The notes beneath the pieces were generated by a model. It was not told the origin of the DNA, did not search any database, and worked only from the letters and a program-made list of their open reading frames with translations. A program made the position numbers and the translations under genes. A stretch of DNA of 63,941 nucleotides, counting the filler, from Methanobacteriota archaeon (GTDB lineage: Archaea; JACRDV01), in the NCBI GenBank assembly GCA_024860865.1. It is 7 parts of 7 records of this genome, joined end to end, with 100 filler letters (N's around TTAATTAATTAA, not from the genome) between each part and the next. Parts side by side here need not be neighbours in the genome. Positions count along the whole stretch, not along the records: positions 1 to 9,519 come from JACRDV010000035.1; positions 9,620 to 30,034 come from JACRDV010000031.1; 5 more parts are not named here. The stretch is one strand, 5' to 3'. Of this stretch, positions 1,993 through 23,097 are shown one piece after another (the stretch's first letter is position 1; every line of letters begins with the position of its first letter).

Positions 1993-2048
1993 ACTTTCCT
2001 GCTGGAAAGCTCTTTGCTCGAGATTAAAACTTTTCTCGAACAAATCAT
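1993..2048 (-). promoter_or_regulatory. Putative SECIS element (AUGA...GA type), copy 1, plus a 6-bp accessory hairpin
   Basis: Minus strand reads ATGA-T-TTGTTCGAGA-AAAGTTTTAA-TCTCGAGCAA-A-GA, then CTTTCC-AGCA-GGAAAG; ATGA lies 2 nt past the TAA of the Sec-DsrE gene. Confidence 0.8.
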
Positions 2049-2050
2049 TG

Positions 2051-2380
2051 TTACCCGAATGTTATAACTTTATCATTTTCTTCAACAAATTTGACAAAAT
2101 CGTTCATAACCGCTAGAGGGGAAAGTTGAAAAGTTTTATCTTTCCCTCTGGCTATTAAGCAAGTACCTCAAGCCATTATATGTCCACCGGCATCAATGAA
2201 ATCTCTTGTAACTTTTTCAACATCGAAAGTTTCATGTTTTATTTCTCCTACCTCGACTCCTTTACTCATGAGAAAAACTTTTACTTCATGGCCTTCAAGA
2301 ATAGCTGTAAGTCCAAATCTAAAAGCGTTCCAAGCACTTTCAGGTTCATTTGTATTAATTACAATACCTATTTTGCTCAT
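2051..2380 (-). CDS. DsrE-family selenoprotein (109 aa, UGTC motif)
   Basis: In-frame TGA at 2168-2170 in A-U-GTCLIARG, where the family has ACGTCLxxR; frame stays open to DKVITFG-TAA; GGAGGTGA SD before ATG 2380. Confidence 0.88.
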
Positions 2381-2388
2381 TCTTGTTC

Positions 2389-2739
2389 TCACCTCCTACC
2401 CCGGATTTTTTTAGCTAGTTTTTCATCATCAGCTAATTGCTCAAACAAAATGTCTCTTATAATGCTACAAGCCTGGATGATTTTTGGGTTAGTGATTTTG
2501 TAGAAGATATTCACGCCTTCCCTTCTGCTCTCAACAATCTTTTTCTTTCGTAAGAGGGCAAGATGCTGGGATAAATTCGCTTGAGGAATATTAGCCAACG
2601 AAGCTAGTTCGGTGACTGTTTTTTCACCATCTCGGAGTATATCCAATATTTCTAATCGCTTGGGATTCGCTAATATTTGACATATTTCAGCATGCAATTC
2701 AAAGATTTTTTTGTTTAATTCCGAAACTCTTTGACCCAT
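2389..2739 (-). CDS. ArsR/SmtB-family transcriptional regulator
   Basis: LANPKRLEILDIL, ANLSQHLALLR, SRREG. Confidence 0.9.
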   Translation of the reverse strand: MGQRVSELNKKIFELHAEICQILANPKRLEILDILRDGEKTVTELASLANIPQANLSQHLALLRKKKIVESRREGVNIFYKITNPKIIQACSIIRDILFEQLADDEKLAKKIRGRR

Positions 2740-2901
2740 GGAAGCAACTCTAAAAATTTTAATTCTAATATTCGAATAAATTTATATATATACTTGTTTT
2801 TTATTTAAAGACTTTTAAAATAATAATTATAATTATATTAAGGATGGCAGAGTATATTTAGTTCGATTATCACTTGAAAATATAGACTTAGAGGGCTATA
2901 T

Positions 2902-3063
2902 ATGAAGAAGACAAGTAAATGGAAGTGTGAGCCCTGTGGACATTTAACAGACGAAAAACCTACTGAGGTTTGTTTAATATGCGGTTCCCGTAGTACCGGT
3001 GCAGTAAAAATAGTCAGTCAAGAAGGTGAAATCAAACATATAGGGAGAGGAAAAACTGATTAA
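2902..3063 (+). CDS. Rubredoxin-like small protein (53 aa), absent from the ORF track
   Basis: Manual translation MKKTSKWKCEPCGH...VCLICGS with two CxxC motifs; GAGGG SD upstream. Confidence 0.7.
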   Translation: MKKTSKWKCEPCGHLTDEKPTEVCLICGSRSTGAVKIVSQEGEIKHIGRGKTD

Positions 3064-3132
3064 TAAAATGAATACGTTTGAGAGAGACAGTTTTAAATCA
3101 TTACAATCAAGAGCTATCTTTAATTTGTTAAA

Positions 3133-3188
3133 ACTTTCCTGCTGGAAAGCTCTTTGCTCGAGATTAAAACTTTTCTCGAGCAAGTCAT
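3133..3188 (-). promoter_or_regulatory. Putative SECIS element, copy 2, plus accessory hairpin
   Basis: 54 of 56 nt identical to 1993-2048; perfect 10-bp stem TTGCTCGAGA/TCTCGAGCAA; lies directly after the HesB-like gene. Confidence 0.8.
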
Positions 3189-3190
3189 AG

Positions 3191-3520
3191 TCAACAAATT
3201 CTTTCAAAACCTTTAATCGTTAGATATTCCGTGAACCAAGTTTTTTCAGCATCTATTTCTAGTTCACTTGTACTTAGGTGTTGTAGTAGGTACTGAGCAA
3301 GCTCAGAATCTAGGAAAATTGGGATATTATCATCTTTAATTTTTAGTAAGTTATATCCCTTTAGTTCCTGCTCTCTGACCAATGAAACGTCAAGGCTAGG
3401 CCCGCTTCATCCAATTCCGGCATATATTAAGACTGCTGGATCTGTGACGCCTAAGCTAATTTTTTTCTGTATGTAATGCTTTGCTTTTTCAGTTAAAACT
3501 GCTTTCAGGCCATTTTCCAA
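3191..3520 (-). CDS. HesB-like selenoprotein (109 aa)
   Basis: TTG start after GGAAGTGA; LTEKAK...LIYAGIG-U-SGPSL with TGA at 3407-3409 on the HesB GxGC(S)G cysteine; IPIFLD downstream. Confidence 0.85.
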
Positions 3521-3547
3521 GAAATTCACTTCCTTTTTATAATTATG

Positions 3548-3566
3548 TGTTCAAGATTGTTGAACA
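3548..3566. promoter_or_regulatory. Candidate operator, 7-5-7 inverted repeat
   Basis: TGTTCAA-GATTG-TTGAACA between the divergent HesB-like and HTH regulator genes. Confidence 0.5.
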
Positions 3567-3615
3567 GTTATGATTAAATATCTTTTTGAACTAATATTTA
3601 AGTTTAGTGTTATTC

Positions 3616-3954
3616 ATGGAATTCAGGTCCTTACTAGTATCTAAATGCATATCAGTAAATGATATAATTAAGTGTTTGCTTTGTATCGGAGATACCGAAA
3701 TCCAAATATTAGAAATTTTAAAAAAACGCGAGGCTACTGTTGAAGAGATAGCTGAAAAACTTAAGATAAATAGGAGTACAGCTCAAAGATGTTTACAAAC
3801 TCTAGTCGCTACTGGTTTAATTTTCAGAAAAAGTACAACTGAAATTAAAGGGCGTAAATTTATTTACCGTGCAATATCCGAGAGAGAGTTGAAAGAAATA
3901 TTAAAAAATACAGCTGAGCAATGGTATCAAAAAGTTATGGAATCATTAAAATAG
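3616..3954 (+). CDS. TrmB-like winged-helix transcriptional regulator
   Basis: TVEEIAEKLKINRSTAQRCLQTL helix-turn-helix and GRKFIY wing. Confidence 0.8.
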   Translation: MEFRSLLVSKCISVNDIIKCLLCIGDTEIQILEILKKREATVEEIAEKLKINRSTAQRCLQTLVATGLIFRKSTTEIKGRKFIYRAISERELKEILKNTAEQWYQKVMESLK

Positions 3955-4022
3955 AGGAAGTTAATTTTAAGTGAAAACTAAAAAGCGATGCATTTTGGCA
4001 TTAATCTAAGGAGGATAGATAA

Positions 4023-4436
4023 ATGAATGAACTAGAAGAAATTCGAAGGAAAAAAATGGAAAAGTTAGTGAAAGAAATTGGTGAAAAGAATCCGAGTGCG
4101 CAAAATTATCCAAAGGCACCAATAACTATTACTGACGAAAATTTTGATCAAATAGTTCAACAATATCCTTTGATGGTCATAGACAATTGGGCCCCTTGGT
4201 GTTTTCCTTGCAGAATGATCGCTCCAATTATCGAAGAAATGGCTAAAGATTATGCTGGAAAAGTAGTCTTTGGAAAATTAAATACTGATGAAAACCAAAG
4301 AACCCCTCTAAAATTTGGAGTTATGGGCATACCAACGCTACTTATCATTAAAAATGGAAAAGAAGTCGATAGAATAGCAGGGGCAGTACCGAGAGAATAT
4401 ATCGAATCTAAATTGCGAAGATATTTGCATGAATGA
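4023..4436 (+). CDS. trxA: Thioredoxin
   Basis: WAPWCFPC, GIPTLL. Confidence 0.92.
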   Translation: MNELEEIRRKKMEKLVKEIGEKNPSAQNYPKAPITITDENFDQIVQQYPLMVIDNWAPWCFPCRMIAPIIEEMAKDYAGKVVFGKLNTDENQRTPLKFGVMGIPTLLIIKNGKEVDRIAGAVPREYIESKLRRYLHE

Positions 4437-4500
4437 ATCAAATTAAAATCATTTTGAGCTTTAAAGCTTTCTTTAATAATAAAAAAATCGAGGGAGATTA

Positions 4501-4854
4501 ATGGAAAAATATGAAATTCTTGAAATTTTAAAAAACGTATATGACCCAGATTATAAAGATAAGTCCATTGTAGAATTGGGTCTTGTGGATGAAAACACCA
4601 TAAAAATAAATGAAGACAAAATAGAAGTGGAATATAAAGTGGCAGCTCCATTTTGTCCATTTAGCGCTGCTATCGGAATTATGATTCAGTATGCTTTGGA
4701 AAAGAAATTTGGAAAGCGAGTTGATGTGAAAATCCAGCCTGGGCATTATCAAGAAAAACTAGTAGAAGAAATATTGAGAAGCGAAGAAAAAAGAAAAGAT
4801 TTGCTTAGTAAATTAGAATCTTTTGGAATACTTCAGCGATGTGTAAGAATATAG
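4501..4854 (+). CDS. DUF59 / Fe-S assembly (SufT-like) protein
   Basis: LKNVYDPD...SIVELGLV...PFCP. Confidence 0.8.
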   Translation: MEKYEILEILKNVYDPDYKDKSIVELGLVDENTIKINEDKIEVEYKVAAPFCPFSAAIGIMIQYALEKKFGKRVDVKIQPGHYQEKLVEEILRSEEKRKDLLSKLESFGILQRCVRI

Positions 4855-4866
4855 TAAATGAGATAA

Positions 4867-5775
4867 ATGAATACTGATATCCTAATTATCGGATCAGGAC
4901 CAGCCGGAATACAGGCTGCGATTTATGCCGCTCGAAGAAAAGTTGATGTAATCATTCTTGGTAAATTAGAAAATAGCTCTTTAGCAAAAGCCCATGTTGA
5001 AAATTATTTTGGCATCTCTGGGCCAATAGTTGGTATAGATTTACTAAGGGTTGGAAAAGAACAGGCAGAAAAATTTGGTGCAAAATTTATTGAAGAAGAT
5101 GCACTGCATCTCGAGCGAAAAGATGACAAGTTTATTGTTAAGACTGAAGGCGGAAAAGAAGTCGAATCAAAAGCAGTAATTTTTGCGATGGGTGTATCAA
5201 GAAAAAAACTTGGTGTGAAGGGAGAACAACAATTTCAGGGAAGAGGGGTTAGCTATTGTGCAGAATGCGATTGCGGATTTTTCAAGGGAAAGAAAGTGGC
5301 GGTCATTGGAGATGGAAGCGCGGCAGCTAGCAGCGCAATATTACTGGCTAAATATGCCTCAAAAGTCTATTTAATTTCAAAAAAACTTAGCACATCAGAA
5401 CATTTACAAGATGAATTGAAAGTAGGGAATATTGAAATAATAGAAGGCAAAAGAATAAGCGAAATTTACGGCAACAGTGCAGTCGGTGGGATTAAGCTGG
5501 ATGGCAGCTCATTGGAAGTAGAAGGTGTTTTCATTGAATTGGGTTCAAAGGGGGTTATAGAGCTCGCTGTCAATGTTGGTTTGCTCCCGGATCCAAGAGG
5601 TTACATTCATGTGAATGAGGAACAAAAAACCTCAGTGCTAGGAATTTTTGCTTGCGGCGATATATGCGGTCCTCCTTTACAACTTGCTAAGGCTGTTGGT
5701 GAGGGATGTATTGCCGGCATTGAAGCAGCAGAGTATGTAAAAAGAATAAGCAAATTAGAAAAGCAGACTGTTTGA
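4867..5775 (+). CDS. trxB: Thioredoxin reductase
   Basis: GSGPAG, GRGVSYCAECD, FACGD. Confidence 0.88.
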   Translation: MNTDILIIGSGPAGIQAAIYAARRKVDVIILGKLENSSLAKAHVENYFGISGPIVGIDLLRVGKEQAEKFGAKFIEEDALHLERKDDKFIVKTEGGKEVESKAVIFAMGVSRKKLGVKGEQQFQGRGVSYCAECDCGFFKGKKVAVIGDGSAAASSAILLAKYASKVYLISKKLSTSEHLQDELKVGNIEIIEGKRISEIYGNSAVGGIKLDGSSLEVEGVFIELGSKGVIELAVNVGLLPDPRGYIHVNEEQKTSVLGIFACGDICGPPLQLAKAVGEGCIAGIEAAEYVKRISKLEKQTV

Positions 5776-5810
5776 AAATAACCCATCATAAAAAAACTTG
5801 GAGGACTAAT

Positions 5811-6440
5811 GTGGGAGCAATATCCGAGAAGGATAAAAAACATTTGCAAAAGATATTTGAAAAGAACGTACAGACCGGAGTAAAAATACTAGTTTTTACT
5901 CAAGAAGATAGGCATAGAGAAATAAAAGAGCTTATGCAAGAATTAGCTACTACTTCAAATAAAATTGAAGTTGAATTATACGATTTTACTAGAGATAGCG
6001 AAAAGATTAAACAATACAATATAGATAAGATCCCCGCGATTGCAATCATCGGGAAAGAAGATTATGGGGTAAGATTTTACGGCATACCCTCAGGCTATGA
6101 ATTTTCATCTTTAGTTGAAGATATTATTGATGTCTCTAGAGGAACAACAGATCTCCCTGAAAAAATCAGAAATCAATTAGGATCAATAAATAAACCAATC
6201 CATATTCAAGTTTTTGTGACGCCTACTTGTCCTTACTGCCCTAAAGTGGTTAGGCTAGCACACAAGTTCGCAATTGAGAATGATTTAATAATATCGGATA
6301 TGATAGAAGCCACGGAATTTCCAAATCTGGCATTAAAATATAGAGTTATGAGCGTTCCGAAAACAGTTATAAATGAAAAAATTGAATTTGTAGGAGCGCT
6401 GTCCGAAGAGGACTTTCTTGAATATATATTAGCTGCATAA
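5811..6440 (+). CDS. Protein disulfide oxidoreductase (two Trx folds, AhpF N-terminal-like)
   Basis: RFYGIPSGYEF, TPTCPYCP, VMSVP; GTG start after GGAGG. Confidence 0.88.
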   Translation: MGAISEKDKKHLQKIFEKNVQTGVKILVFTQEDRHREIKELMQELATTSNKIEVELYDFTRDSEKIKQYNIDKIPAIAIIGKEDYGVRFYGIPSGYEFSSLVEDIIDVSRGTTDLPEKIRNQLGSINKPIHIQVFVTPTCPYCPKVVRLAHKFAIENDLIISDMIEATEFPNLALKYRVMSVPKTVINEKIEFVGALSEEDFLEYILAA

Positions 6441-6635
6441 CTTTAGAAATTCTAATTAATATTGTTTGAAAATTAATCTAAAATTTCTTTTTTGTTTAGA
6501 GTAATTTTTAGTTTTTTGTTCTTTTATAATTATAAATACTAAAGTAAATTATATATTACTATATTATAATATACTAATTTAAATATTTGAAAAAATTAAA
6601 ATCGTTATTCTCTTTAAAACAAAAGAAGTGAATTA

Positions 6636-7838
6636 ATGAGCCCCAATCAAATCTACAAGAGAATATTTGTCGCGCCTTGGCCCGAATGGATTGGCGGTCT
6701 TATTTTAGGGATCTTCTTTATTATTTTCTCTGCTTGGGCATTAACGCCTTTTAACATTTATGGAGGCTATTATAATTGGGGTAGCTGGTTCTACAAACTC
6801 ACTGGATTAAGTGATTTTTTCCCTGCCTTTAAGGATCCTGCTTCACCACTTATGGCAAAGATGAGCGTGGGCAATTTAGGATTTTTGTTAGGTGTTTTCT
6901 CAGCAGCAATACTGGCAGGCGAATTTAAATTGAAAGGAGTCACATCAAAAACTGATTACATAGAAGCGGTTTTAGGCGGCTTTGTTATGGCTTTGGGCGT
7001 AGTGTTTGCATGGGGGTGCAACTTCGGAGGCTTCTTCTCAGCTATCACAGCGTTGAGCCTAAATGGCTTTGCTATGATGCTGGGGCTAATTGTTGGCGGC
7101 TTCTTGGGTTCTCTATATGTGAATTGGAGAGCAGCGGGGATAGAAATATTGGAGTTGATACCGGTTGAAGCCAAAATCTCTAGCCCATCTACGCCTTCAG
7201 ATAGTGGTAACAAAACGTGGCTGCCTATTTTACTGATACTTATTCCCATAACACTTGTTGTTTTAATAAATTACTATTATTCTATTAACGGTGCCATTAT
7301 TTACTCTGGAATTTTATTCATAGGTTTGTTCATTGGTTTTACTGTACAAAGGTCACGGCTTTGCTTCACAACTGCTTTTCGAGATCTCTTTAACAAAAAA
7401 GGAGAATTTTTAAGATCATTAAAATTGCAAAGAGCCATAGTACTAGGCTTAATTGTAGCAGCAATAGGTATTGCTGCTTTAAAGGCGAATAATCTCTTAG
7501 ATAAAGATCTAAATGTAAGCCCAGTGGGATGGATCAATGTGATGGGAGGCATTTTATTTGGGTTTGGCATGGTAATTGCAGGAGCTTGCGGTTCCGGAAT
7601 GTTATGGCGGACTGCAGAAGGACATTTGAAGCTTGTGATAGCACTTGTTGTTACCACCTTAGCCTTCGTGCCTTTAACGCTATTTATATGGAACTATGCA
7701 CCTGCATTGGCAGGGCCTAAAATCTTTATTCCAACCGTCTTTGGATGGCCACTTGGTCTACTATTCATTATAGGTCTACTTTCGGTATGGCTGCTAATTT
7801 TGAGATGGATAGAACATCAATGGAGAGGTAGGAAATAG
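6636..7838 (+). CDS. YeeE/YedE (TsuA-like) sulfur-compound transporter
   Basis: Many TM segments; GCNFGG, RSRLCF and GACGSG cysteine motifs. Confidence 0.88.
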   Translation: MSPNQIYKRIFVAPWPEWIGGLILGIFFIIFSAWALTPFNIYGGYYNWGSWFYKLTGLSDFFPAFKDPASPLMAKMSVGNLGFLLGVFSAAILAGEFKLKGVTSKTDYIEAVLGGFVMALGVVFAWGCNFGGFFSAITALSLNGFAMMLGLIVGGFLGSLYVNWRAAGIEILELIPVEAKISSPSTPSDSGNKTWLPILLILIPITLVVLINYYYSINGAIIYSGILFIGLFIGFTVQRSRLCFTTAFRDLFNKKGEFLRSLKLQRAIVLGLIVAAIGIAALKANNLLDKDLNVSPVGWINVMGGILFGFGMVIAGACGSGMLWRTAEGHLKLVIALVVTTLAFVPLTLFIWNYAPALAGPKIFIPTVFGWPLGLLFIIGLLSVWLLILRWIEHQWRGRK

Positions 7839-8090
7839 ATGGGAGTTAAGTTTGAAAAAAAAGATGAGAAATCTTACCTATTAGATGTAAGAGGATATCT
7901 ATGTCCTTATCCAGTAATCTTTACGAGAAAAGCCCTTCTACAGTTAAAAGAAGGAGATTTCTTGGAGGTCTTTACTGATAATCCCGCTTCTTGTGAAAAT
8001 GTGCCTAATGATGTTAAGGAAGATGGCCATAAGGTCTTAGCTATTGAACAAATGGGGCGAGGTGAGTGGAAGATAGTTATTAAAAAATAG
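7839..8090 (+). CDS. TusA/YeeD-family sulfur carrier
   Basis: LDVRGYLCPYP. Confidence 0.9.
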   Translation: MGVKFEKKDEKSYLLDVRGYLCPYPVIFTRKALLQLKEGDFLEVFTDNPASCENVPNDVKEDGHKVLAIEQMGRGEWKIVIKK

Positions 8091-8171
8091 AGGGGTGAAG
8101 AGTTAGCTAGGAAAATGAGAAATTAAAACTTGCCAGTTCTAAAAAATAAAAATTTTTTGAGAGGTGTTAAA

Positions 8172-8564
8172 TTGGAAATAGGTGTAAGCCAAGGCAATAT
8201 TGAAAAGAAAAATAAAACCTTAACAATATTTTTATTCACGAGCCCATATGGTTTTGAAAATTCCTCGACGGCAGCGCGATTGGCTGAGGCAGCTTTAGAC
8301 AAAGGTTATTCTGTGAATATGTTCGCTTCGAGCGATGGAGTTTACAATTTTATGGCAGGACAAAAGGCTGTTGCAATTCCGAACATTCAACAAGAGTTTG
8401 AAAAACTGATCAATAAAGGGTTAAAGGTATACTTATGTGGTCCTTGTTTAAACTTTCGTGGGATACAGCGCCAGAATCTTATCGAGAATTCTAAACCTAG
8501 CTCTCTTACTGAACTTTTTGCTATAATGGGTCAGAGCAATGTATTTCTATGCTTTAGTTTTTAA
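8172..8564 (+). CDS. DsrE/TusD-like sulfurtransferase
   Basis: SPYG, DGVYN, CGPCLNFRG. Confidence 0.8.
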   Translation: MEIGVSQGNIEKKNKTLTIFLFTSPYGFENSSTAARLAEAALDKGYSVNMFASSDGVYNFMAGQKAVAIPNIQQEFEKLINKGLKVYLCGPCLNFRGIQRQNLIENSKPSSLTELFAIMGQSNVFLCFSF

Positions 8565-8579
8565 TGGGCAGGTGGTTTT

Positions 8580-8945
8580 ATGGAATCAATTTGCATAATA
8601 GTAAGAAAGGCTCCTTATGGAGTCATCCAAGCGGGCGAGGCTTTAAGGCACATTAGTGGAGCAGTTGTTCATAAACTAAAGACTACTGCAGTTTTGTTGG
8701 ATGATGGAGTTTACCTTGCAAAAGCCAATCAAGCCGGTGAGAATACTGGTTGGCCCTCTTTAGCTGATGGTTTGAAGGAACTGTTGGAAGTTAGTAAGGG
8801 CAACCCTCCAAAAATTTTTATTCATGCTGAATCGATGAAAAACAGAGGATTGCACATGACGGACATGATAAAAGGAGCTGAAGAAATCACTGACGACCAG
8901 TTAGCAAAAATTTTGAGCGATACTAAAACAGTAATGATATTTTAA
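8580..8945 (+). CDS. DsrF/TusC-like protein
   Basis: KAPYG, DDGVY, ESMKNRGL. Confidence 0.75.
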   Translation: MESICIIVRKAPYGVIQAGEALRHISGAVVHKLKTTAVLLDDGVYLAKANQAGENTGWPSLADGLKELLEVSKGNPPKIFIHAESMKNRGLHMTDMIKGAEEITDDQLAKILSDTKTVMIF

Positions 8946-8961
8946 AAATAGGGGGAGAAAA

Positions 8962-9291
8962 ATGAAATCAATTCTGATAGTAATATCTAACTCGCAAGAT
9001 AATGCCATATCTTCATTACAGCTGGCTAATTCAATTCAAAAACAGGGCAATAAGGTTTCCATTTACCTTCTTCAAGACGGTGTATTTTGTTCTCTTGCTA
9101 ATGAAAATATAACTAAATCAGTGGTGGAAAAAGCCATAGCAAGTGGAGTGGAGTTTTATGTGCTATGCGATGACCTAACCCTTCGGGGGTTTTCAGAAAG
9201 GGAGATAATCCCGCAAGTACATGTTTCATCTTATTCTGAGCTGATCGACCTAATGTTAGAAAAATGCGATTTTACCATAGGAGTCCTTTAA
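8962..9291 (+). CDS. DsrH/TusB-like protein
   Basis: LLQDGV, YVLCDDLTLRG. Confidence 0.75.
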   Translation: MKSILIVISNSQDNAISSLQLANSIQKQGNKVSIYLLQDGVFCSLANENITKSVVEKAIASGVEFYVLCDDLTLRGFSEREIIPQVHVSSYSELIDLMLEKCDFTIGVL

Positions 9292-9519
9292 GGAAAATCA
9301 AAAGAGCAAATATTATTACTTACTGCGGCTTTTTTAATCGATTAATCCAACATTTCTTTATAAATTAGAATTAGAAACAAAAAAAATAAATGATAAATGA
9401 GTTATTTCTTTCGCTTTCATTGATATTTTTTGGCTGAAATAAAAACACAATCTGGCTCAATATTTTTAACATCTAAATTTTCAAATTCAGATTCCTTTAG
9501 CATGTTTCGTATATCCCTA

Positions 9520-9619
9520 NNNNNNNNNNNNNNNNNNNNNNNNNNNNNNNNNNNNNNNNNNNNTTAATTAATTAANNNNNNNNNNNNNNNNNNNNNNNNN
9601 NNNNNNNNNNNNNNNNNNN
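9520..9619. other. Artificial contig linker
   Basis: N44-TTAATTAATTAA-N44, with stops in all six frames. Confidence 0.98.
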
Positions 9620-10433: not shown

Positions 10434-10444
10434 TTTCTCACCTA

Positions 10445-11314: not shown

Positions 11315-11436
11315 TAAATTACCTCCATTTTAATTAAGTATCATTTATATTCTTGGAGGAGATTTTGAGTCAGAATTCATTGAACCTACAAGTGAAGAAA
11401 GTAAACCAATAGTTAATACACCCATTTTATAATCTC

Positions 11437-13981: not shown

Positions 13982-13994
13982 AGAGGTGAAAAAA

Positions 13995-15068: not shown

Positions 15069-15164
15069 CTTGAACTCTTTTTTCTTTATTTTAATTTGAA
15101 AACTTAATCAGTTATGTACTTTAAAACTAGGTATTTAATAAGTCTCTCAAAATAAAAACTCTCA

Positions 15165-15383
15165 TCAGAATGGTTTCTTTTCCTTTACTACGATTTCAAG
15201 GCCCTCTACTGTTATTGCTCCAGTTGGACAGCTGTTAACTACTTCCTCGAGGTTACAGCTATCGGACCCCTCTGATTTGAGAACAATTGCTTTTTCTCCC
15301 TCTAACTTGAATACATCAGGACACAAACTTTCGCAGGTTCCACAGCCTTGACAGGCTCCGTAATCTATGTTTATTGCTACCAT
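15165..15383 (-). CDS. Ferredoxin
   Basis: CQGCGTCESLCP ... CPTGAI. Confidence 0.85.
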   Translation of the reverse strand: MVAINIDYGACQGCGTCESLCPDVFKLEGEKAIVLKSEGSDSCNLEEVVNSCPTGAITVEGLEIVVKEKKPF

Positions 15384-15521
15384 GTTTATTCTCCCTCTAG
15401 ACACCGTTTTATAATGTTAATAGTTTTATAAAATTTTCCCTAATCGCAATTGAACATTATGCAGTATAAACACGAAACCATATGTGACAAAAATAAATAT
15501 TATTAATTTTAATTAAAAACC

Positions 15522-16721
15522 ATGAATAAAAAACCCATATCAATTATGTGGGAATCTACTATTGCGTGCGGTCTCGCTTGCAAGCACTGCAAGGCTTCTG
15601 CTAAAAAAACTCCAGATCCTGATGAGCTTTCCACAGAAGAGGCAATGGATCTAGTTGACCAAATGGTTGAATTTGGCAAACCTTACCCAATTTTGCGCAT
15701 AACAGGCGGAAATGCGCTGATGAGGGACGATATATTTGAAATAATAAAGTGTGCAAAGGGTGAAGGGTTAAATGTTACAATAGCCCCTAGCACTACGCCT
15801 CTTTTGAATAGGGAGAATATAACAAAGCTAAAAGAAGCAGGAACTGATGTAGTTGCGATAAGCATAGATGGAGCAGATGCTGAATCGCACGACAATTTCA
15901 GAGGAGTCAAAGGAACTTTTGATACAATGGTTAAGGCAACACAAATTATGAATGATGTGAAACTGCCATTCCGTCTTCTCACTACAGTAACAAAATTCAA
16001 CGTCCGCAACTTACCCGAGATATTTTTGCTCAGTAAAAGACTCGGTGCCATTGGATGGTATTTGTATATGCTTATCCCAACCGGAAGGGGTAAGATAGAA
16101 CACGGAATAAGTCCAGCCGAATTTGAGGATGTTTTTAACTTCATTTATGATTTAATGAAATATCGTGTGATGACAATAAACGCAATAGCGGGAAGCGAAC
16201 CATTCAGAAGAGTTGCCATAATGAGAAGGCTTGTAGAAGAAGGCAAATTGAACGAAGAAGTGCTGAGATTGGGCGAGCTTTATCGCTTTTTGAAAAATAA
16301 GCTTGACAATTTGCTGAGCTCTGGATCGTTCGAGAAAATTGAAGTCTCAGCTAAAAAAAAGCATAACAACTTCGGTAAGGGCATATTCGTTTCAAGAAAT
16401 GGTAGCGTATATCCAAGCAGTTTCATGCCGATAGAGATTGGAAATGTTCTAAATGATAGGTTAGCGCACATATATGCAAGCGCAGAAATTTTGAGAGATT
16501 TGAATAACACAAAAAAGCTTAAAGGGCGCTGTGGCATCTGCGAGTTCAATGACGTTTGTCGTGGTTCGAGGTCGCGTGCTTATGCTGTTACAGGCGACTA
16601 TCTTGCTGAAGACCCTTACTGCGCTTACCAACCAGGGACAGTAGGAAAGAGAGAAGGAAATGAAGCCATTCTTCAAGAATTACGTGTTACTAATTTTAGT
16701 CGTCAAGCACCTTCACTTTAG
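15522..16721 (+). CDS. Radical SAM/SPASM protein of the NirJ/AhbC/AhbD-like haem synthesis group
   Basis: CGLACKHC; GRCGICEFNDVCRGSRSRAYA. Confidence 0.8.
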   Translation: MNKKPISIMWESTIACGLACKHCKASAKKTPDPDELSTEEAMDLVDQMVEFGKPYPILRITGGNALMRDDIFEIIKCAKGEGLNVTIAPSTTPLLNRENITKLKEAGTDVVAISIDGADAESHDNFRGVKGTFDTMVKATQIMNDVKLPFRLLTTVTKFNVRNLPEIFLLSKRLGAIGWYLYMLIPTGRGKIEHGISPAEFEDVFNFIYDLMKYRVMTINAIAGSEPFRRVAIMRRLVEEGKLNEEVLRLGELYRFLKNKLDNLLSSGSFEKIEVSAKKKHNNFGKGIFVSRNGSVYPSSFMPIEIGNVLNDRLAHIYASAEILRDLNNTKKLKGRCGICEFNDVCRGSRSRAYAVTGDYLAEDPYCAYQPGTVGKREGNEAILQELRVTNFSRQAPSL

Positions 16722-16758
16722 AAAGTTCTGCTTTTCTAACTTAATCCTGACTTCAAAA

Positions 16759-17781
16759 TTACCAAAAACCAGCCAAAGCCAAAGCAAAAAAGTAAATATA
16801 CTTTATTGGAGTCAACTGTTTTTCTCGTAATAAATCATTTAAATGCTCAATTTCTTCCTCGATAATTTTCTCTACTTTAGAAACTTCTGCCCTTTCTAGC
16901 TCCATGTTTTCCTCTATTGCTTTTCTTAGTTCTCCATCCTTTAAGATAACGTTGGGAAGAGTAACAACAGCAGGGTCAACATTTCCAAAGGGTGATACAT
17001 CAACGATAAGAAGGGGTGAACTTCTATTTAACGAGGTTATCATATTCGGGGTGACCCTATAGTGTGATGCTAAAGTGGCACATATCAGTACATCAGCCTC
17101 TGAAAGTACTTCGCCAAGCTGCTCATATCTTACTGCCGTACCTCCAATTTCTTCCGCGGTTCTAACGCCTAAATCGTAATTTCTATTGACAATGATTAAT
17201 TCTGGATCGTGCTTAAGTAGTGCCTTGGCCACTTTCCGTCCCGCTAATCCTGTGCCTAGCAGGACTACCGTTTTTCCCTTTAATGTAGGTAGTTCCTCGA
17301 GGATATATTTAACAGCCATATCCTTTATAGCAATTGAACCTTCAATTTTCGTTTCTAAGCGCACCCTTTTACTTACTTGGATAGCCGAATTAAACAATAA
17401 GTCCATATACCCGCCTACTGCAGACTTTTCTTTAGCCAAACGGAATGCAGCTTCAACCTGCATCGGGATATACGTTTCTCCTAAAACCCTGGATTCAATG
17501 CTACCAACCAATCTAAATAGGTGCACAACTGCATCCCTGTCAAAATATATCTCAAATAAATCTTTCTCCAACACATTTTTTGAAAAAAGTAATAATAATG
17601 AGTCGACTTTCTCTTTATCAGCAATTAATACGTAAACTTCGACTCGTGTGCCTGTTTGGATTAAGACACATTCCTTTAAATTTGAAAGGTTATAGAATTC
17701 TGAGGGTTCTTTAAACCTAAACTGCTCAAAATTAGCATAGGGAATTTTCATGTGATGGAGGGAAAGACAAACTAAGTGCAT
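16759..17781 (-). CDS. hemA: Glutamyl-tRNA reductase homologue lacking the catalytic Cys
   Basis: AVVHLFRL, ESRVLGE, KRVRLET and GTGLAG motifs; TCNR is replaced by TGTR. Confidence 0.75.
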   Translation of the reverse strand: MHLVCLSLHHMKIPYANFEQFRFKEPSEFYNLSNLKECVLIQTGTRVEVYVLIADKEKVDSLLLLFSKNVLEKDLFEIYFDRDAVVHLFRLVGSIESRVLGETYIPMQVEAAFRLAKEKSAVGGYMDLLFNSAIQVSKRVRLETKIEGSIAIKDMAVKYILEELPTLKGKTVVLLGTGLAGRKVAKALLKHDPELIIVNRNYDLGVRTAEEIGGTAVRYEQLGEVLSEADVLICATLASHYRVTPNMITSLNRSSPLLIVDVSPFGNVDPAVVTLPNVILKDGELRKAIEENMELERAEVSKVEKIIEEEIEHLNDLLREKQLTPIKYIYFFALALAGFW

Positions 17782-18014
17782 AATTATACTCTTTCAATAA
17801 CTTATACAAAGAAGTTATTTGTGTTATAAAGTATACTTATATGGTAATCCTTCAATTCTCCGTAAACAACGCGGCTAAATTCTGAACTGGCTAAAGCAAT
17901 GAGTATCCTTCGGTGGTTTTATGGATGTTAATTTAATTTAAGCTTTTTTAATTAGAAAAACTCTGTGCTAAAAAATTATCTTAACTTTCTCTTAAAACAC
18001 GAAACAGATAAAAC

Positions 18015-18884
18015 CTATTTTAAAAATTCTAAGACAGAATCTGTTGGAACCGCATTCTGATCTAGACCGAGCTCAGCAGAATCAACTCCAAGACTCAAAC
18101 CTAGCAACTGTGGATAAAGTAAGCTTGGGATATCATATGTTTCTCCATGGACTTCTTTAATTTTGAGCTGCTGAGAGTCGTACATAATATTACAAAAAGG
18201 GCAGATGGTAATGATGCAGTTTACACCAGCCTCTTTAAAGTTTGCCAATTTTTCTCGCGCTAATTTTGTAGCTAAGTCTTCATTTACAGAAAGCAATGGA
18301 CCGCCACAACACCGAAGTCTATCTTTGTATTTAACACTCTTGGCGCCAGTTAATTCAATAAGCTCATCCAAATGCTTTGGCATTTCCGGGTCATCAAATC
18401 TGATATAATCTGACGGCTTTAAGAAGTGGCAGCCATCATGAGCTCCAACATTTAATCCATCAAATTGTTTTTTAATTTTATTCTTTATTTTATCAATGCC
18501 ATAATCCTGAACCAGCATTGTAACGAAGTGTTTAATTTCAATTTTTCCTTTAAACTCGAGATCAACTGTTTTTAAAATTTCATTAATCTCATCACGAAGG
18601 TGTTTTTTATCTTTTAATGTTTTATTTGCTTTAATTAATGAAGTATGGCATCCGTTGCAAAGGACAACCATATCCAGACCCATCTCTTCTGCTTTGCAAA
18701 TATTGTAAGCAGAGCTGGCCAACCAACCATTATATAACACAGATTCAATTTGCAGACCACAACAGCTAGCTCCAGGGATATCCACTAACTTAATTCCTAA
18801 AGCTTGAGCAACCTTTCTTGTTGAAAGGTCATAATGATTTAACCTAAATGGGATTGTGCAACCGAGAAAGTATGCATATTCCAT
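18015..18884 (-). CDS. hdrB: Heterodisulfide reductase subunit B
   Basis: YFLGC, two CCG domains, GCH, CPFC. Confidence 0.93.
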   Translation of the reverse strand: MEYAYFLGCTIPFRLNHYDLSTRKVAQALGIKLVDIPGASCCGLQIESVLYNGWLASSAYNICKAEEMGLDMVVLCNGCHTSLIKANKTLKDKKHLRDEINEILKTVDLEFKGKIEIKHFVTMLVQDYGIDKIKNKIKKQFDGLNVGAHDGCHFLKPSDYIRFDDPEMPKHLDELIELTGAKSVKYKDRLRCCGGPLLSVNEDLATKLAREKLANFKEAGVNCIITICPFCNIMYDSQQLKIKEVHGETYDIPSLLYPQLLGLSLGVDSAELGLDQNAVPTDSVLEFLK

Positions 18885-18886
18885 TT

Positions 18887-19399
18887 CTATTCCTCTTTTG
18901 GCAATACTTTCTCAAGCCCAGCTTTCTTTAAGACTTTCTTCATTTTTTCAATGTCTACTGGCTCCACTGCAGGTAAACCCAAGTCTGCTCTTGCTTCGTT
19001 TTCAAAGTCAGTGATTTCTGTCACTCTTCCAATTTTATAAACACTTTCTGCAATCATTTTTATTCCATTTGGTACGTAACCCTGCCTAGCTGCAATGTTT
19101 CGAAGAGCTCTTATTACCATAGCTGGTTTTACATCGCGCGGACATCTTTCATAACAATTATAGCAAAATGAACAAAGCCAAATAACATTACTAGAGAGCA
19201 ACTCATCTTTAAACCCAAAAATAGACATACGGATAATCTCATGTGGTCGAAAAGTTGCCTCTAACTCTGCAACTGGACAACCACCACTGCAAGTACCACA
19301 TGCATAACATCGAAGGAGATGGTCTCCACCTTCTTCTTTTAAGACTAAGTTTTTGAAGGCGGGATCAATACGTTTTGGCGAAGGTTTTTCAGCCACCAT
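18887..19399 (-). CDS. hdrC: Heterodisulfide reductase subunit C
   Basis: CYACGTCSGGCP, WLCSFCYNCYERCP. Confidence 0.93.
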   Translation of the reverse strand: MVAEKPSPKRIDPAFKNLVLKEEGGDHLLRCYACGTCSGGCPVAELEATFRPHEIIRMSIFGFKDELLSSNVIWLCSFCYNCYERCPRDVKPAMVIRALRNIAARQGYVPNGIKMIAESVYKIGRVTEITDFENEARADLGLPAVEPVDIEKMKKVLKKAGLEKVLPKEE

Positions 19400-19530
19400 A
19401 TAGATTCTCTTTTTCCTAAGTTATCGAATGAGAGATATAAAAAATTATATAAATTTAATCTGACTCGATTTTTCTCACTATTGCTCTAGAAAAACAGTCT
19501 AACCTAAGGGAAAAATGAAGAAGAACTCCT

Positions 19531-19577
19531 TTGCAATGACTCCAGCTGAAACCTTTTAGGAAGGCTCGAGGAGGCAA
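19531..19577 (+). promoter_or_regulatory. Putative SECIS element in the 5' leader of the hdrA-mvhD operon
   Basis: TTGC-A-ATGA-CTCCAGCT-GAAA-CCT-TTT-AGG-AA-GGCTCGAG-GA-G-GCAA; ATGA-to-GA spacing is 31 nt versus 32 in the other two copies. Confidence 0.6.
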
Positions 19578-19648
19578 TTTGCACCAAATGAGTTCGACCG
19601 ACCCTATGGGAAAACTGTTTATTTATGGAGCATTATCGAGATGAAAAA

Positions 19649-22600
19649 ATGACATTGAACCCAAAAACATCGGTGCTAGTAATTGGCGGTGGAGTTGCAG
19701 GCATTTATGCTTCCCTTGAGCTAGCCAAACAAGGCTATAGAGTCCACCTCGTTGAAAGAGAACCAACTATTGGAGGACGTTTGGCCCAAGTTTTTAAGGT
19801 ATTTCCGACCGATGAGTGCGCTGCATGACCATTAACACCACTGATGGCAGAGGCAGCCAGCCACCCAAATGTAACATTGTATACCCTTTCTGAAGTCAAA
19901 GAAGTCAATGGCAGAGCTGGCGACTTTAAGGTTAAAATCTTAAAACATCCGAGATACGTTGACGAAACAAAGTGCACAGGTTGCGGGGCATGTTATGAGG
20001 TTTGCCCAGTTGAAGTTCCAAATGAATTTGATATGGGTTTGGGCGTACGGAAAGCAATATACGTTCCATTTCCACAAGCAGTTCCACTAACTCGAGCAAT
20101 AGATAAAGAGCACTGTGTAAATTGCAGAATGTGCATTGGAAGGTGCAAACCTAAAGCAATTGATTACGATATGCAACCTCAATTAGTCGAAGTTAATGTC
20201 GGCTCAATAATCGTTACAACTGGGTACGATGAGTTCAAGCCAGATATAAGGAAAGAACTTGGATATGGCATTTACCAAAATGTTATAACAACTCTTGAAT
20301 TCGAGCGTTTGGCCCATGCAACTGGTCCAACTGAAGGACACATAGTCAGACCTTCTGATGGAAAAGCTCCTCAAAGAGTCATATTTGTGCAGTGCGTCGG
20401 AGCTAGAGATCTTAAGATTAACAAAGCGTTTTGCAATAAAGCTTGTTGCATGTATGGAATGAAAAATGCTGGCATTGTAAAGATGCACTATCCCGATGCA
20501 GAGGTTTATGTTTCTTACATAGATATCAGAGCAGCAGGAAAACTTTTCGAAGAATTCTATCAAGCTAGAAAAGACCAATGGGGCATTAAGTTCGTAAAGG
20601 GTCGAGCTTCAAAAATCGTCGAGGACCCAAACACAAAGAACCTTATTGTGTCATTAGTTGATATGCAAACTGGCGATATAAGAAAACTCGAAGCGGATTT
20701 GGTCGTTCTAGTTGCTGCCTTTGAGCCGGCAAAAGGGACCGAAGAAATTGCAAAAATTCTTGGGCTTAAAATCGCAGAAGATGGATTTTTTGAGGAAAAA
20801 CATGCTGTTGTAGCTCCGAATGAAACAGCTATCTCCGGAATTTACCTCGGAGGCGTTAGTCAAGGTCCTAAAGATACTCCAGATTCAATTTGTCATGCAA
20901 GAGGTGCAGCCTCAGCATCAACGCTCAACCTAGGAATTCCACCTCAATTAAAAGAAGTTGAAGTAAAACCAGAATTTGAGTTGTCAGAAGAACCAAAAAT
21001 AGGCGTTTTTGTCTGCCACTGTGGTGGAAATATCTCAAACTATGCAAATGTTCAGGAACTCAGAGAATATGCAGAAAAATTGCCAAGCGTTGCAGTTGCT
21101 AAAGATTATGTGTTCATGTGCTCAGAGCCTGGCCAAAAATTGATCAAAGAAACAATTGCTGAGAAAAAGTTGAATAGAATAACGGTAGCCGCTTGCACAC
21201 CAAGAGTTCATGAGCTTACCTTCAGAAAGTGTTTAATAGGAGCTGGACTCGATCCCTACTACTTCGAGCTTGTCAATATTAGAGATCAAGATTCACTAGT
21301 CCATATGAATCAACCGAAAGAAGCCACTGAAAAAGCAAAAGACTTAATTCGCTCTGGAGTTGCAAGAGTTGTTAAACTTGAGTCAGTTCCATCAAGAGAA
21401 ATCAAAGTTCAGCAAGTCGCTTTGATTATTGGCGCAGGCATAAGTGGAATACACTCAGCGCTAGACCTTGCAAATAGAGGCTTCAAAGTTTATTTAATTG
21501 AGCGCGAAGCTGAGATCGGCGGCCGAATGAAAAAGTTATACAAAACATTCCCAACAAACGATGAGACAGAAAGGCTATTAAAACCACTTATTGAAGAAGT
21601 CAAAAATCATTCCAATATCAAGTTGCTAACCTCTACAGAAGTAATAAGCTCAAGCGGAACCATCGGTGACTTTGCTGTGATAGTGAAACAGGGTTCTAAA
21701 GAAATAGAGCTTAAAGTTGGCGTAATAATTCTAGCTACTGGTACATCAGAATACGAACCAGCGCACGGTGAGTTTGGATACAAAATAAATCCAAATGTTA
21801 TAACCCAGCTTGAACTTGAGCAGCAATTAAAAGAAGGGAAGTTCGAAAAACCAAACAATGTCATAATGATACAATGTGTTGGTTCAAGGCAAAAAGAGGG
21901 GAATAAATACTGCTCTAGAATTTGCTGTAACGTAGCTCTGAAGAATGCAATGATTATCAGAGAGAAATATCCAGAAGCAAACGTGTATATTCTCTACAGA
22001 GACTTAAGGGCCTATGGCAGACGGATGGAAGAGTATTATCAGAAAGTACAAGAAATGGGCGTTATGTTCATTGAATATGATTCTGAAAAGCCGCCTGAAG
22101 TTACTGAAGATCCTTCCACAAAAGAGCTAATTGTTAAAGTCGAAGATGCTGTTATCAGAAGAACAATTGAAATTCCTGCAGACAAAGTTGTTCTTTCCGT
22201 CGGCACCGTTCCACAGAAAGGAATTGAAAGAGCCTGTGAGCTGTTTGGAATTACAAGAACTGCAGATGGATTTCTTGAAGAAGTTCACTTAAAACTTGAG
22301 CCGAATGCCACAAGAGCTCCTGGAGTTTACATAGCCGGTTCTGCTGCTTTTCCAAAAGACATACCGGATTCAATATCAATGGGAAGAGCTGCCGCGTCTG
22401 TTGCATCAATTCCACTAGTAAACGGTTTGGTAAAACTTGAATTGGTAACAGCATTAGTTGATGAAAAAATTTGCGTGGGCTGTGGGATCTGTGAAACAAT
22501 TTGTCCATTCGAGGCAATTAGAATCGAAGAAACCCCAAAGGGAAAAGTTGCCGTAGTAAACGAAGTTAAATGCAAAGGCTGTGGCCAATGTGTTGCTGCA

Positions 22601-22681
22601 TGCCCGATTGGAGCTATGAGTTTACGTTACTGGAGAGATGAACAAATACTAGCATCGTTAGAGGCACTTTTAGCGGAGTAG
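19649..22681 (+). CDS. hdrA: Selenocysteine-containing HdrA with two FAD modules (about 1010 aa)
   Basis: ORFs 19625 and 19844 are in frame; TGA 19826-19828 lies in [13 protein letters not shown], the known HdrA Sec site. Confidence 0.92.
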
Positions 22682-22692
22682 GAGTGAATTAA

Positions 22693-23097
22693 ATGGTCAA
22701 TGAAAGAATTGTTATATTTGCTTGTATGAAATGAGGTTATGCAGCAGCGGATTTAGCCGGCACAATGAAACTTCAATATAATCCATCCGTTCGGATGTTA
22801 AGATTACCTTGCACTGGACGAGTTGATGTTCTTCACGTCTTAAAGGCCTTTGAGTTAGGTGCAGATGGAGTTATGGTCGTTGCATGTAAAAAAGGAGAGT
22901 GCGCCTTCGAGACCGGAAACTTAGCTGCAGAGAGAAGGATAATGTTTGTTAAAAAATTATTAAATCAACTTGGACTTGGGAGCGATCGAGTCAACATTTA
23001 TTTTTTGTCTTCGGGAGAAGCGGATAAATTTGTAGCTGCAGTTAAAGATATGGTTGAAAAAGTTAAAAAACTTGGACCTAGCCCATTGAAGAAGTAA
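22693..23097 (+). CDS. mvhD: Selenocysteine-containing MvhD/VhuD (134 aa)
   Basis: ATG 22693 after GGAGTGA; FACMK-U-GYAAADLAG with TGA at 22732-22734; PCTGRV, CKKGEC. Confidence 0.92.

Follow-up and report, generated by a model that had tools for sequence, protein, structure and literature searches.

The 63,941-nt stretch of DNA analysed here (the window) represents a low-GC (35–38%) archaeal bin from groundwater and raises the question of whether four genes interrupted by an in-frame TGA encode selenoproteins, and which SECIS elements would direct their decoding. The four TGAs reported in the original prediction were all found in place, and so were its three hairpins with ATGA, a stem, GAAA...TTTTA and GA at a spacing of 31–32 nt. 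We consider it probable (about 0.8) that all four are genuine Sec genes, that two of them carry type I SECIS elements (E1 and E2) on the 3′ side, and that hdrA and mvhD most likely share a single 5′ element (E3). In each gene, one UGA would replace the codon of a redox-active Cys and be read as Sec, and archaeal SelB carrying Sec-tRNA(Sec) would be recruited through E1–E3.

The first gene (2051..2380, minus strand) encodes a DsrE-like protein of 109 aa (PF02635, E 2.5e-11), with the TGA at 2170-2168 (residue 71, motif U-G-T-C) and a TAA stop at 2053-2051. The alignment comprised 21 homologues, the top-ranking and named ones among 120 listed of 550 matches. The UGA corresponds to the first Cys of a CGTC motif, and Cys occupies this position in all 20 full-length homologues, including the close relatives P0125 (71%) and P0126 (66%). 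The 21st, P0127, is 97% identical and 70 aa long; it breaks off immediately ahead of the UGA column. At the second Cys conserved among the homologues (xCP), the window protein has Ser. The bacterial DsrE-like selenoproteins (PF02635, UxxC; Sargasso Sea survey, PMC1088965; table in PMC13188914) share the family and the Sec position; in bacteria the hairpin follows the UGA directly, whereas the window gene, in an archaeal bin, has a 3′ AUGA/GA hairpin instead. A DsrE-like selenoprotein in an archaeon is possibly new.

Two further genes form the hdrA-mvhD locus on the plus strand. The tandem-fused HdrA (19625..22681, 1018 aa) was identified by its Pfam domains and by PDB chain 9sfi_A (E 5e-167), and MvhD/VhuD (22693..23097, 134 aa) by PF02662 (E 3.6e-46). 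The HdrA TGA at 19826-19828 (residue 68, motif C-A-A-U) aligns with the X (Sec) of 9sfi_A, and the MvhD TGA at 22732-22734 (residue 14, motif C-M-K-U) with the first X of 9sfi_K, both chains of one Sec-containing enzyme of known structure; where 9sfi_K has its second canonical Sec, the window MvhD has Cys. These Sec forms adjoin a Cys-type paralogue, an HdrA-MvhD fusion in which either site is occupied by Cys (23109..25475, plus strand). The genes hdrC and hdrB (18015..19399, minus strand) are divergent from hdrA, and the TATA-like A/T-rich stretch between them and hdrA (~19440-19460), read by eye, may be a promoter.

The fourth gene (3191..3529, minus strand) encodes a HesB-like protein of 112 aa with the TGA at 3409-3407 (residue 41, motif U-S-G-P) and a TGA stop at 3193-3191. 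UxGP is the motif of TIGR01911 according to a review (PMC13188914). The Pfam scan assigned no family to this protein at E<=0.001, and a word-based search for relatives returned nothing but the ORF itself. When it was aligned locally with a single bacterial IscA-like ORF (24% identity, 58 aa, E 0.042), U came to lie opposite the Cys of GGGC. Because neither a Pfam family nor relatives were detected, the conserved Cys claimed for this gene is weakly shown, and the lack of homologues confirming the frame across the UGA counts against the preferred reading. The claim that TGA falls on a conserved Cys in all four genes thus held for the coordinates of four and for a proven Cys/Sec position in three, DsrE-like, HdrA and MvhD.

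E1 (2010..2048) and E2 (3150..3188), both on the minus strand, lie 2 nt 3′ of the DsrE-like and HesB-like stop codons, respectively, so that each gene would have its own type I SECIS. E1 consists of AUGA, U, a 10–11 bp helix, an A-rich loop, A and GA; its repeat unit (1987-2051) also includes a second small hairpin and is 92% identical over 65 nt to that of E2 (3127-3191). The ATGA to GA spacing is 32 nt in both. The shared AUGA/GA core would be kink-turn-like, and it encloses a 10–11 bp helix and a loop beginning AAAA, as in the "eSECIS-like" elements of Asgard archaea. Both elements match one pattern exactly (chance expectation 0), their folds have z values of -3.71 (E1) and -4.03 (E2), and E1 scores 80 bits with the E1+E2 model. 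Of the two differences in the helix, one (U-G to C-G) keeps the pair and the other (U-A to C.A) opens the closing pair. A type I descriptor has two sites in 128 kb (both strands), each directly 3′ of a TGA-bearing gene; in Markov shuffles the mean was 0.05, with at least one site in 10 of 200, and 78 related loci (686 kb in total) contained none. The repeat itself occurs only twice in 64 kb, each time right after a TGA-bearing gene. Since E2 nearly duplicates E1 at a distance of 1.1 kb, the two carry scarcely more weight than a single independent case.

The Asgard type I elements (lokiSECIS/eSECIS-like), as described by Mariotti et al. 2016 (PMC4989117) and Huang et al. 2024 (PMC11227280), likewise have AUGA before and GA after the helix and A at the first loop bases; they too lack an apical ministem and follow the selenoprotein ORF closely on its 3′ side. 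The Loki elements, however, have a fixed helix of 9 bp and an 11-nt loop, against 10–11 pairs and 10–12 nt in E1/E2, which in addition carry one extra nucleotide between core and helix on either side, do not end the loop with G and have a second small hairpin downstream. The seven Asgard selenoprotein families listed there do not include the DsrE-like and HesB-like genes served by E1/E2. Eukaryotic SECIS (RF00031) share the AUGA...GA core and the unpaired A's of the apical loop with the window elements, but the window helix is shorter, and no Rfam SECIS family matched the window hairpins at E<=10; no SBP2 is known in archaea (PMC4989117, PMC11227280). The same papers describe AUGA/GA for most of the >1200 Asgard selenoprotein genes, as well as for the SECIS of hdrA/vhuD in Methanococcales and in Methanopyrus. 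The motif is therefore not special to eukaryotes and Lokiarchaeota, as had been supposed; the mechanism is known, and eukaryote-like Sec decoding outside Asgard is in part known as well.

The third hairpin, E3 (19536..19572, plus strand), differs in kind from E1 and E2, with which it had been grouped. It shares ATGA, GAAA..TTTTA and GA with them at a spacing of 31 nt, but its methanococcal-type GAA/A arrangement with AUGA/GA and its position 5′ of hdrA suggest a candidate HdrA/VhuD-type SECIS. E3 lies in the ~145-nt hdrA leader, 53 nt before the start codon, and comprises AUGA, a helix of eight positions, one of them a C.C mismatch, GAAA, a ministem of 3 bp capped by a UUU loop, AA, the returning helix and GA. 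The order of parts is identical to that of the Methanococcales/Methanopyrus HdrA/VhuD SECIS (PMC4989117 Fig. 4B text; PMC11227280), namely AUGA, a lower helix, a bulge of GAA, a short upper stem, the opposite A and GA, and those elements serve the same two genes. They differ from E3 in lying 3′ of hdrA or vhuD, in an internal loop of GAA/A rather than GAAA/AA, in three G-C pairs in the ministem where E3 has two C-G and one U-A, and in the lower helix, which in E3 contains the mismatch. The layout was also read directly in the related loci L003, L004 and L006. Placed in the operon's 5′ leader, E3 would most likely be common to the pair and act on the UGAs of both genes, which follow it at distances of 290 nt and 3.2 kb. 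A 5′ SECIS is functional in Methanococcus maripaludis, as demonstrated experimentally for fdhA1 (Peiter et al. 2025, PMC11881835); that element likewise lies upstream of its ORF, though of a different gene, and has flanks complementary to the ORF that would bring it near the UGA, whereas complementarity of the E3 flanks is at chance level only.

That last difference fits a doubtful but possible alternative, in which E3 is a chance hairpin and hdrA/mvhD depend on a SECIS elsewhere (outside the contig, or of a type that went unrecognised) or on another read-through signal. The ordinary fold energy of E3 (z -1.57) agrees with this, as do the 3′ position, relative to hdrA and/or vhuD, of the Loki elements (PMC4989117) and of those in the metagenomic loci L003 and L006, and the failure of two narrow covariance models, of two sequences each (E1+E2 and two metagenomic vhuD SECIS), to recover E3 at E<=10. 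On the other hand, the HdrA/VhuD-type descriptor, composed after both E3 and L003 had been seen, has E3 as its single site in the window against a shuffle mean of 0.005 (1/200), and its four sites in the 78 related loci all fall in L003, L004 and L006, the only ones with TGA in hdrA or mvhD. Furthermore, the operon strand offers no AUGA-helix-A-rich-loop-GA candidate other than E3 over 7.9 kb (19400-27300), a strict GAA/A hairpin occurs nowhere in the window, the hdrA leader is unusually long, and mvhD lacks a 3′ UTR, since the next gene begins after 11 nt. The shared 5′ element is the likelier reading; its position is possibly new, as may be the presence of both SECIS forms in one bin.

The SECIS loci are on contigs 1 and 2, while EF-2 and EF-1alpha are on contig 4; binning and composition alone link them. 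The contig-4 EF-2 is 46–48% identical to its best non-self matches and none exceeds 48%; no named Asgard EF-2 is among the best 120. Identity to two named Asgard EF-2s is only 34–37%, and a clade with them is rejected by the AU test (p 0.0137). As judged from its sequence, EF-2 thus argues against an Asgard host, and sets this system apart from the Asgard ones. EF-1alpha is of the short form, with 423 residues pairing with 427 in 3wy9_A, the top PDB chain, which we take to be euryarchaeal, and 418–419 with 426–427 in 3vmf_A and 1jny_A, presumably crenarchaeal. The short form agrees with the reported absence of the TACK/Asgard insertion, and by EF-2 this contig appears non-Asgard. The host appears to be a very divergent, long-branch lineage whose close relatives are absent from the searched databases, and may be new as a Sec user. 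The bin does encode the expected Dsr/Hdr sulfur genes (DsrAB, DsrMK, DsrEFH, TusA and HdrABC/MvhD).

It is unlikely, although to be weighed, that two organisms are mixed in the bin, contigs 1–2 belonging to an archaeon already known to use Sec, Asgard or otherwise, and contig 4 to another one; in that case the selenoproteins would remain real, but the lineage would be ordinary. Ftr and Hdr genes are compatible with Asgard metabolism as well, HdrA and MvhD are the selenoproteins most often encountered in Asgard archaea, and the resemblance of E1/E2 to Asgard type I elements and the indirect linkage of the contigs would also fit. Composition is, however, uniform, with GC of 0.354–0.378 across all contigs and tetranucleotide correlations with contig 4 of 0.96 (contig 1) and 0.98 (contig 2). 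In 11 look-ups, proteins of contigs 1, 2 and 4 were equally isolated, their 90% clusters holding only their own record and 0–2 Logan members, plus, in one cluster, a 43-aa ENA fragment. A search of 185,579 species genomes with the contig-1 SQR-like protein gave nothing beyond a 22% bacterial match, and in the metagenome collection the closest HdrA loci reach no more than 47–54% identity. The original interpretation is on the whole partly supported: the reading of selenoprotein genes served by AUGA...GA hairpins is supported, but the hairpins are of two kinds and AUGA/GA is not confined to eukaryotes and Lokiarchaeota.

Fold z values directly after the four UGAs (-1.15, +0.34, +0.21 and -0.76) are not significant, so bacterial-type SECIS are not indicated. 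Against the Sec reading, the RNA genes seen in the window comprise only a tRNA-Ser, with no tRNA-Sec, and the subset of ORFs scanned with Pfam included no SelB, SelD, PSTK or SepSecS. No further single gene with a TGA flanked by at least 35 codons on each side was seen by eye in the window. It is very improbable that the TGAs arose by nonsense mutation or misassembly, the genes being pseudogenes, and that E1/E2 are a generic intergenic repeat or terminator. Although TGA is one substitution from the Cys codons and Logan contigs break at the E1/E2 repeats, all four TGAs are on catalytic Cys/Sec sites, two of them canonical in known archaeal selenoproteins; P0127 has the identical stop, and both copies of the repeat directly follow a TGA-bearing gene. 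Over 1993-2511, 0 differences separate the window from a Logan contig of run X1, a match that is not independent since X1 may be the source sample.

Genome-wide reassignment of UGA to Cys, Trp or Gly in place of site-specific recoding, which four in-frame TGAs within 64 kb might suggest, has hardly any probability, since these TGAs fall on Cys/Sec positions only and TGA is the ordinary stop of 16 of the 60 ORFs in our list (most with a Pfam family), among them thioredoxin, thioredoxin reductase and HesB-like genes.

Four genes of the window carry a single in-frame TGA codon, all at the positions named in the original prediction: a DsrE-like gene (2051-2380, minus strand; TGA at 2168-2170), a HesB-like gene (3191-3529, minus strand; TGA at 3407-3409), hdrA (19625-22681, plus strand; TGA at 19826-19828) and mvhD (22693-23097, plus strand; TGA at 22732-22734). 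Genome-wide reassignment of UGA is very unlikely, because TGA terminates 16 of the 60 ORFs in our own list, most of which have a Pfam family. When the window was scanned for TGA-containing frames with at least 35 codons on either side of the TGA, no other frame resembled a single gene, as judged by eye.

The TGA codons of hdrA and mvhD occupy canonical CxxU sites. In HdrA it aligns with the Sec residue (X) of PDB chain 9sfi_A, from a Sec-containing enzyme (E 5e-167), and in MvhD with the first Sec residue of chain 9sfi_K (E 9e-45). Of the two Sec sites of 9sfi_K, the MvhD of the window retains the first, the second being a Cys.

The DsrE-like ORF matches PF02635 (E 2.5e-11). A word-based search returned 550 matches, of which 120 were listed; from these, 21 were aligned, namely the highest-ranking entries and those bearing a name. 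The residue opposite the TGA (U71) is a Cys in 20 of the 20 full-length aligned homologues, where it is the first Cys of a CGTC motif; these include the closest full-length relatives among the aligned matches (71 and 66% identity). The product of the 21st homologue, P0127 (97% identical, 70 residues), ends exactly at the TGA column, indicating that this codon is a stop in a near-identical strain. The PDB contains no relative of this protein at E<=1. The ORF shows both features by which this selenoprotein family is recognized: a DsrE fold family match and a predicted Sec in place of the first CxxC cysteine (UxxC).

The HesB-like ORF reads U-S-G-P at residues 41-44, corresponding to the UxGP motif which a 2026 review gives for TIGR01911 HesB-like selenoproteins (PMC13188914). 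No Pfam family was matched at E<=0.001, and the word-based search returned only the ORF itself. Aligned locally with a single IscA-like ORF of bacterial origin, its U falls opposite the Cys of a GGGC motif, at a weak similarity of 24% over 58 aa (E 0.042). The ORF ends with a Cys followed by a UGA stop (3191-3193), 2 nt ahead of the candidate SECIS element, and the UGA within the AUGA of that element lies in the same frame; we assume that neither of these UGA codons is decoded as Sec.

Two of the three candidate SECIS elements, E1 (2010-2048) and E2 (3150-3188), both on the minus strand, are the two matches to a 39-nt pattern for which none is expected by chance, and they are 92% identical over 65 nt. 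Their AUGA starts 2 nt past the stop codon of the TGA-bearing DsrE-like and HesB-like genes, 120 and 219 nt behind the respective UGA. Each folds into AUGA, one base, a helix of 10-11 bp, a loop beginning with AAAA or AAA, one base, GA and then a second hairpin with a stem of 6-7 bp. The folding z-scores are -3.7 and -4.0, and none of 200 shuffled sequences folds as well. The helices differ at two places: a U-G pair in one copy is C-G in the other, so that pairing is kept, and a closing U-A pair is opened to C.A. A type I descriptor run on both strands of the window found only the E1 and E2 sites (mean of 0.05 in Markov shuffles), and it found no site in 78 HdrA-related metagenome loci (686 kb). 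With a covariance model built from E1 and E2, the next matches appeared at E 0.21 or more and were devoid of the AUGA/GA core.

This layout resembles that published for Lokiarchaeota and for most Asgard selenoprotein genes (PMC4989117; PMC11227280). Like lokiSECIS and the Asgard type I elements, E1 and E2 have AUGA 5' of the helix and GA 3' of it, with one extra base on each side; as in lokiSECIS, the first loop nucleotides are adenines and the element follows closely behind the selenoprotein ORF. However, lokiSECIS has a fixed stem of 9 bp and a loop of 11 nt with G at its last position (PMC4989117), whereas E1 and E2 have 10-11 bp, 10-12 nt and A or U. The second hairpin likewise sets E1 and E2 apart from the Lokiarchaeota/Asgard layout. 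It is conserved within the repeat (1987-2009 and 3127-3149, after E1 and E2), with a stem of 6-7 bp and an AGCA loop. In each copy, the sequence before the AUGA is able to pair with that after the second hairpin, although the paired letters differ between the copies. The repeat may thus form a three-way junction, as this arrangement suggests.

Scoring with the Rfam SECIS families, eukaryotic and bacterial, gave no match at the gathering score anywhere in the window and none at E<=10 in 1900-3300 or 19380-19700. The authors of the Lokiarchaeota study likewise reported no Rfam SECIS match for their own elements (PMC4989117). No significant structure is present directly behind any of the four UGA codons, which gives no indication of a bacterial-type SECIS; this includes the DsrE-like gene, although most of its relatives are bacterial. 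An 11-bp hairpin lies within the DsrE-like ORF (2091-2150, minus strand), about 21 nt behind the UGA; the whole 80-nt stretch, with a z-score of -1.15, is not unusual in its folding.

The third element, E3 (19536-19572, plus strand), is located 53 nt ahead of the hdrA start, in a leader that would be about 145 nt long if transcription starts behind a TATA-like stretch at about 19445 (start read by eye). It consists of AUGA, a helix of eight positions, one of them a C.C mismatch, then GAAA, a ministem of 3 bp capped by a UUU loop, AA, the returning helix strand and GA. The original prediction had treated all three hairpins as one kind; E3 differs from E1 and E2, and its layout is that of the methanococcal HdrA/VhuD SECIS, in which, according to the literature, AUGA and GA/AA flank a GAA/A element. 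As in the methanococcal elements, AUGA and GA flank the lower stem of E3. The internal loop is GAAA/AA rather than GAA/A, and could be viewed as GAA/A with an additional A.A mismatch. The upper stem has two C-G pairs and one U-A, instead of the three G-C pairs of the methanococcal HdrA/VhuD type.

A descriptor of the HdrA/VhuD type, written after E3 had been seen, found E3 alone in the window (mean of 0.005 in shuffles, with a match in 1 of 200). In the 78 metagenome loci it found four sites, all within L003, L004 and L006, the only loci of the 78 with TGA at the canonical hdrA and/or mvhD sites; the E3-type layout was also read directly in these three. The 78 loci are 47-54% identical to the HdrA of the window and were used as controls only, being too distant to address conservation of E3. 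L003 (6700-6760 and 7255-7300) and L006 (10-49 and 687-725), both methanococcal-like loci, carry AUGA/GAA/A/GA elements, with hdrA and mvhD each having its own: one in a 293-nt intergenic spacer and one behind mvhD.

Apart from E3, the operon strand from 19400 to 27300 contains no candidate with AUGA, helix, A-rich loop and GA. The next gene begins 11 nt after mvhD, which therefore has no 3' UTR. The fold energy of E3 is ordinary (z -1.57). At E<=10, E3 was absent from the matches of the narrow model of E1 and E2 and from those of an equally narrow model of metagenomic vhuD SECIS, built from two distinct sequences only (L003 and L006). A strict GAA/A hairpin scan of the window, with criteria too strict to see E3, returned nothing. 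A 5'-UTR SECIS is functional in an archaeon, Methanococcus maripaludis (PMC11881835). The flanks of this fdhA1 element are complementary to the ORF, whereas those of E3 lack such complementarity: their best pairing with the hdrA and mvhD ORFs is 11 bp, 290 nt past the UGA, approximately at chance level.

The assignment of the host was based on EF-2 (42445-44652, contig 4). It has one identical Logan entry, followed by matches at 46-48% identity from Bathyarchaeia, Hadarchaeales, Thermococci and Theionarchaea. Among the names in the top 120 matches listed, most of which are unnamed, there is no Asgard. An exhaustive search against 1.84 billion representatives left it in a 50% cluster of its own, and named Asgard EF-2s are 37% (Odinarchaeum) and 34% (Helarchaeota) identical to it. 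A quick maximum likelihood tree of 35 sequences places it on a long branch (1.05) beside Bathyarchaeia (SH-aLRT 90, not starred). Forcing it together with the Odinarchaeum/Helarchaeota clade costs 20.3 lnL units (p-AU 0.0137), for one gene and a group named after the tree had been seen. EF-1alpha is of the short form. The diphthamide loop of this EF-2 reads H-R-S; the usual loop is H-R-G.

Ten proteins of contigs 1, 2 and 4 fall into 90% clusters consisting of the window's own record and 0-2 Logan members, one of them with an additional 43-aa ENA fragment. The SQR-like protein had one bacterial match of 22% in a search of genome contigs; in the Protein Atlas it falls among mixed bacterial and archaeal clusters that give no lineage signal. 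By these sequence comparisons the organism is without a close relative in the collections searched, and the host is probably not Asgard, judging by one gene, with the SECIS-bearing contigs tied in by composition and binning.

The window of 63,941 nt comprises seven contigs separated by N spacers (1-9519, 9620-30034, 30135-36148, 36249-50794, 50895-54754, 54855-61647 and 61748-63941), with a GC content of 0.354-0.378 in every one. The tetranucleotide profile of contig 4 correlates with that of contig 1 at 0.96 and with that of contig 2 at 0.98; contigs 1 and 2 are linked to contig 4 by composition and binning only. Contig 1 is a sulfur-trafficking island, encoding an SQR-like flavoprotein, the DsrE-like protein, ArsR, the HesB-like protein, thioredoxin, thioredoxin reductase, a YeeE-type sulfur transporter, TusA and DsrE/F/H. 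Contig 2 contains DsrMK-like genes and genes for DsrAB-like sulfite reductase subunits and HemA; its hdrCB genes lie divergently to hdrA-mvhD-hdrA/mvhD. The S12-S7-EF-2-EF-1alpha-S10 cluster is located on contig 4, and contig 5 encodes Ftr. The RNA gene search and the ORFs scanned revealed no tRNA-Sec, PSTK, SepSecS, SelB/EFSec or SelD in the window. A tRNA-Ser(TGA) is present at 39699-39785 (minus strand; region 39685-39785), with a partial copy of its 3' end about 3.2 kb away (36516-36550); between them lie a nucleotidyltransferase and an AbiEi/AbiEii toxin-antitoxin pair, an arrangement that looks like an element integrated into the tRNA-Ser gene. One intein each is present in ribosomal protein S12 (646 aa; 45251-47191) and in RNA polymerase subunit A'' (48218-50578), whose 786 aa include a LAGLIDADG domain.

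Taken jointly, these features may describe a deeply divergent groundwater archaeon, belonging neither to Asgard nor to Methanococcales or Methanopyrales, that decodes UGA as Sec with both Asgard/eukaryote-like type I and methanococcal GAA/A-type SECIS elements, the latter in a 5' leader, and uses Sec also in sulfur-relay DsrE-like and HesB-like proteins. We give this reading a probability of about 0.4. If the bin is Asgard or mixed, the loci would be an ordinary addition to a well-described system.

The Sec-decoding mechanism and both types of SECIS element are already in print. The 2026 review counts 11 archaeal selenoprotein families and restricts Sec use among archaea to Methanococcales, Methanopyrales and Asgard; its table lists DsrE-like (PF02635, UxxC) without the mark carried by HdrA, MvhD and HesB-like, a mark we take to mean "found in archaea" (PMC13188914). 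Among the papers listed by our literature search, none was seen to describe a DsrE-like selenoprotein from an archaeon or to extend Sec use to an additional archaeal lineage. Four aspects are possibly new: the DsrE-like gene family, the 5' element of hdrA/mvhD, the occurrence of both SECIS forms in a single bin and the lineage of the host. If the joint interpretation is true, the AUGA/GA kink-turn SECIS would have an earlier origin or a wider distribution than the Asgard-to-eukaryote roadmap assumes, and the lineage would represent a living intermediate that links the two archaeal forms. A fourth Sec lineage with both forms would bear directly on the proposed derivation of methanococcal SECIS from Asgard ones through gene transfer and on the proposed origin of the eukaryotic SECIS within Asgard, while a DsrE-like selenoprotein would add an archaeal family that ties selenium to dissimilatory sulfur metabolism.

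A groundwater metagenome run, which may be the source sample, contains 0.86 of the sampled words of contig 1. Shares of 0.47 and 0.24 occur in two runs from other studies, and small shares elsewhere, including a hot-spring run; none of the runs listed for it is an RNA run. The Logan contigs of two sequencing runs, X1 and X2, break at both copies of the repeat, and the X1 contig covering 1993-2511 shows 0 differences from the window. One Logan contig of a third run, X3, joins 2040 to 3181, within the two SECIS copies, omitting the 1140 nt between them; we read it as an assembly path through the repeat, with a deletion variant as the alternative.
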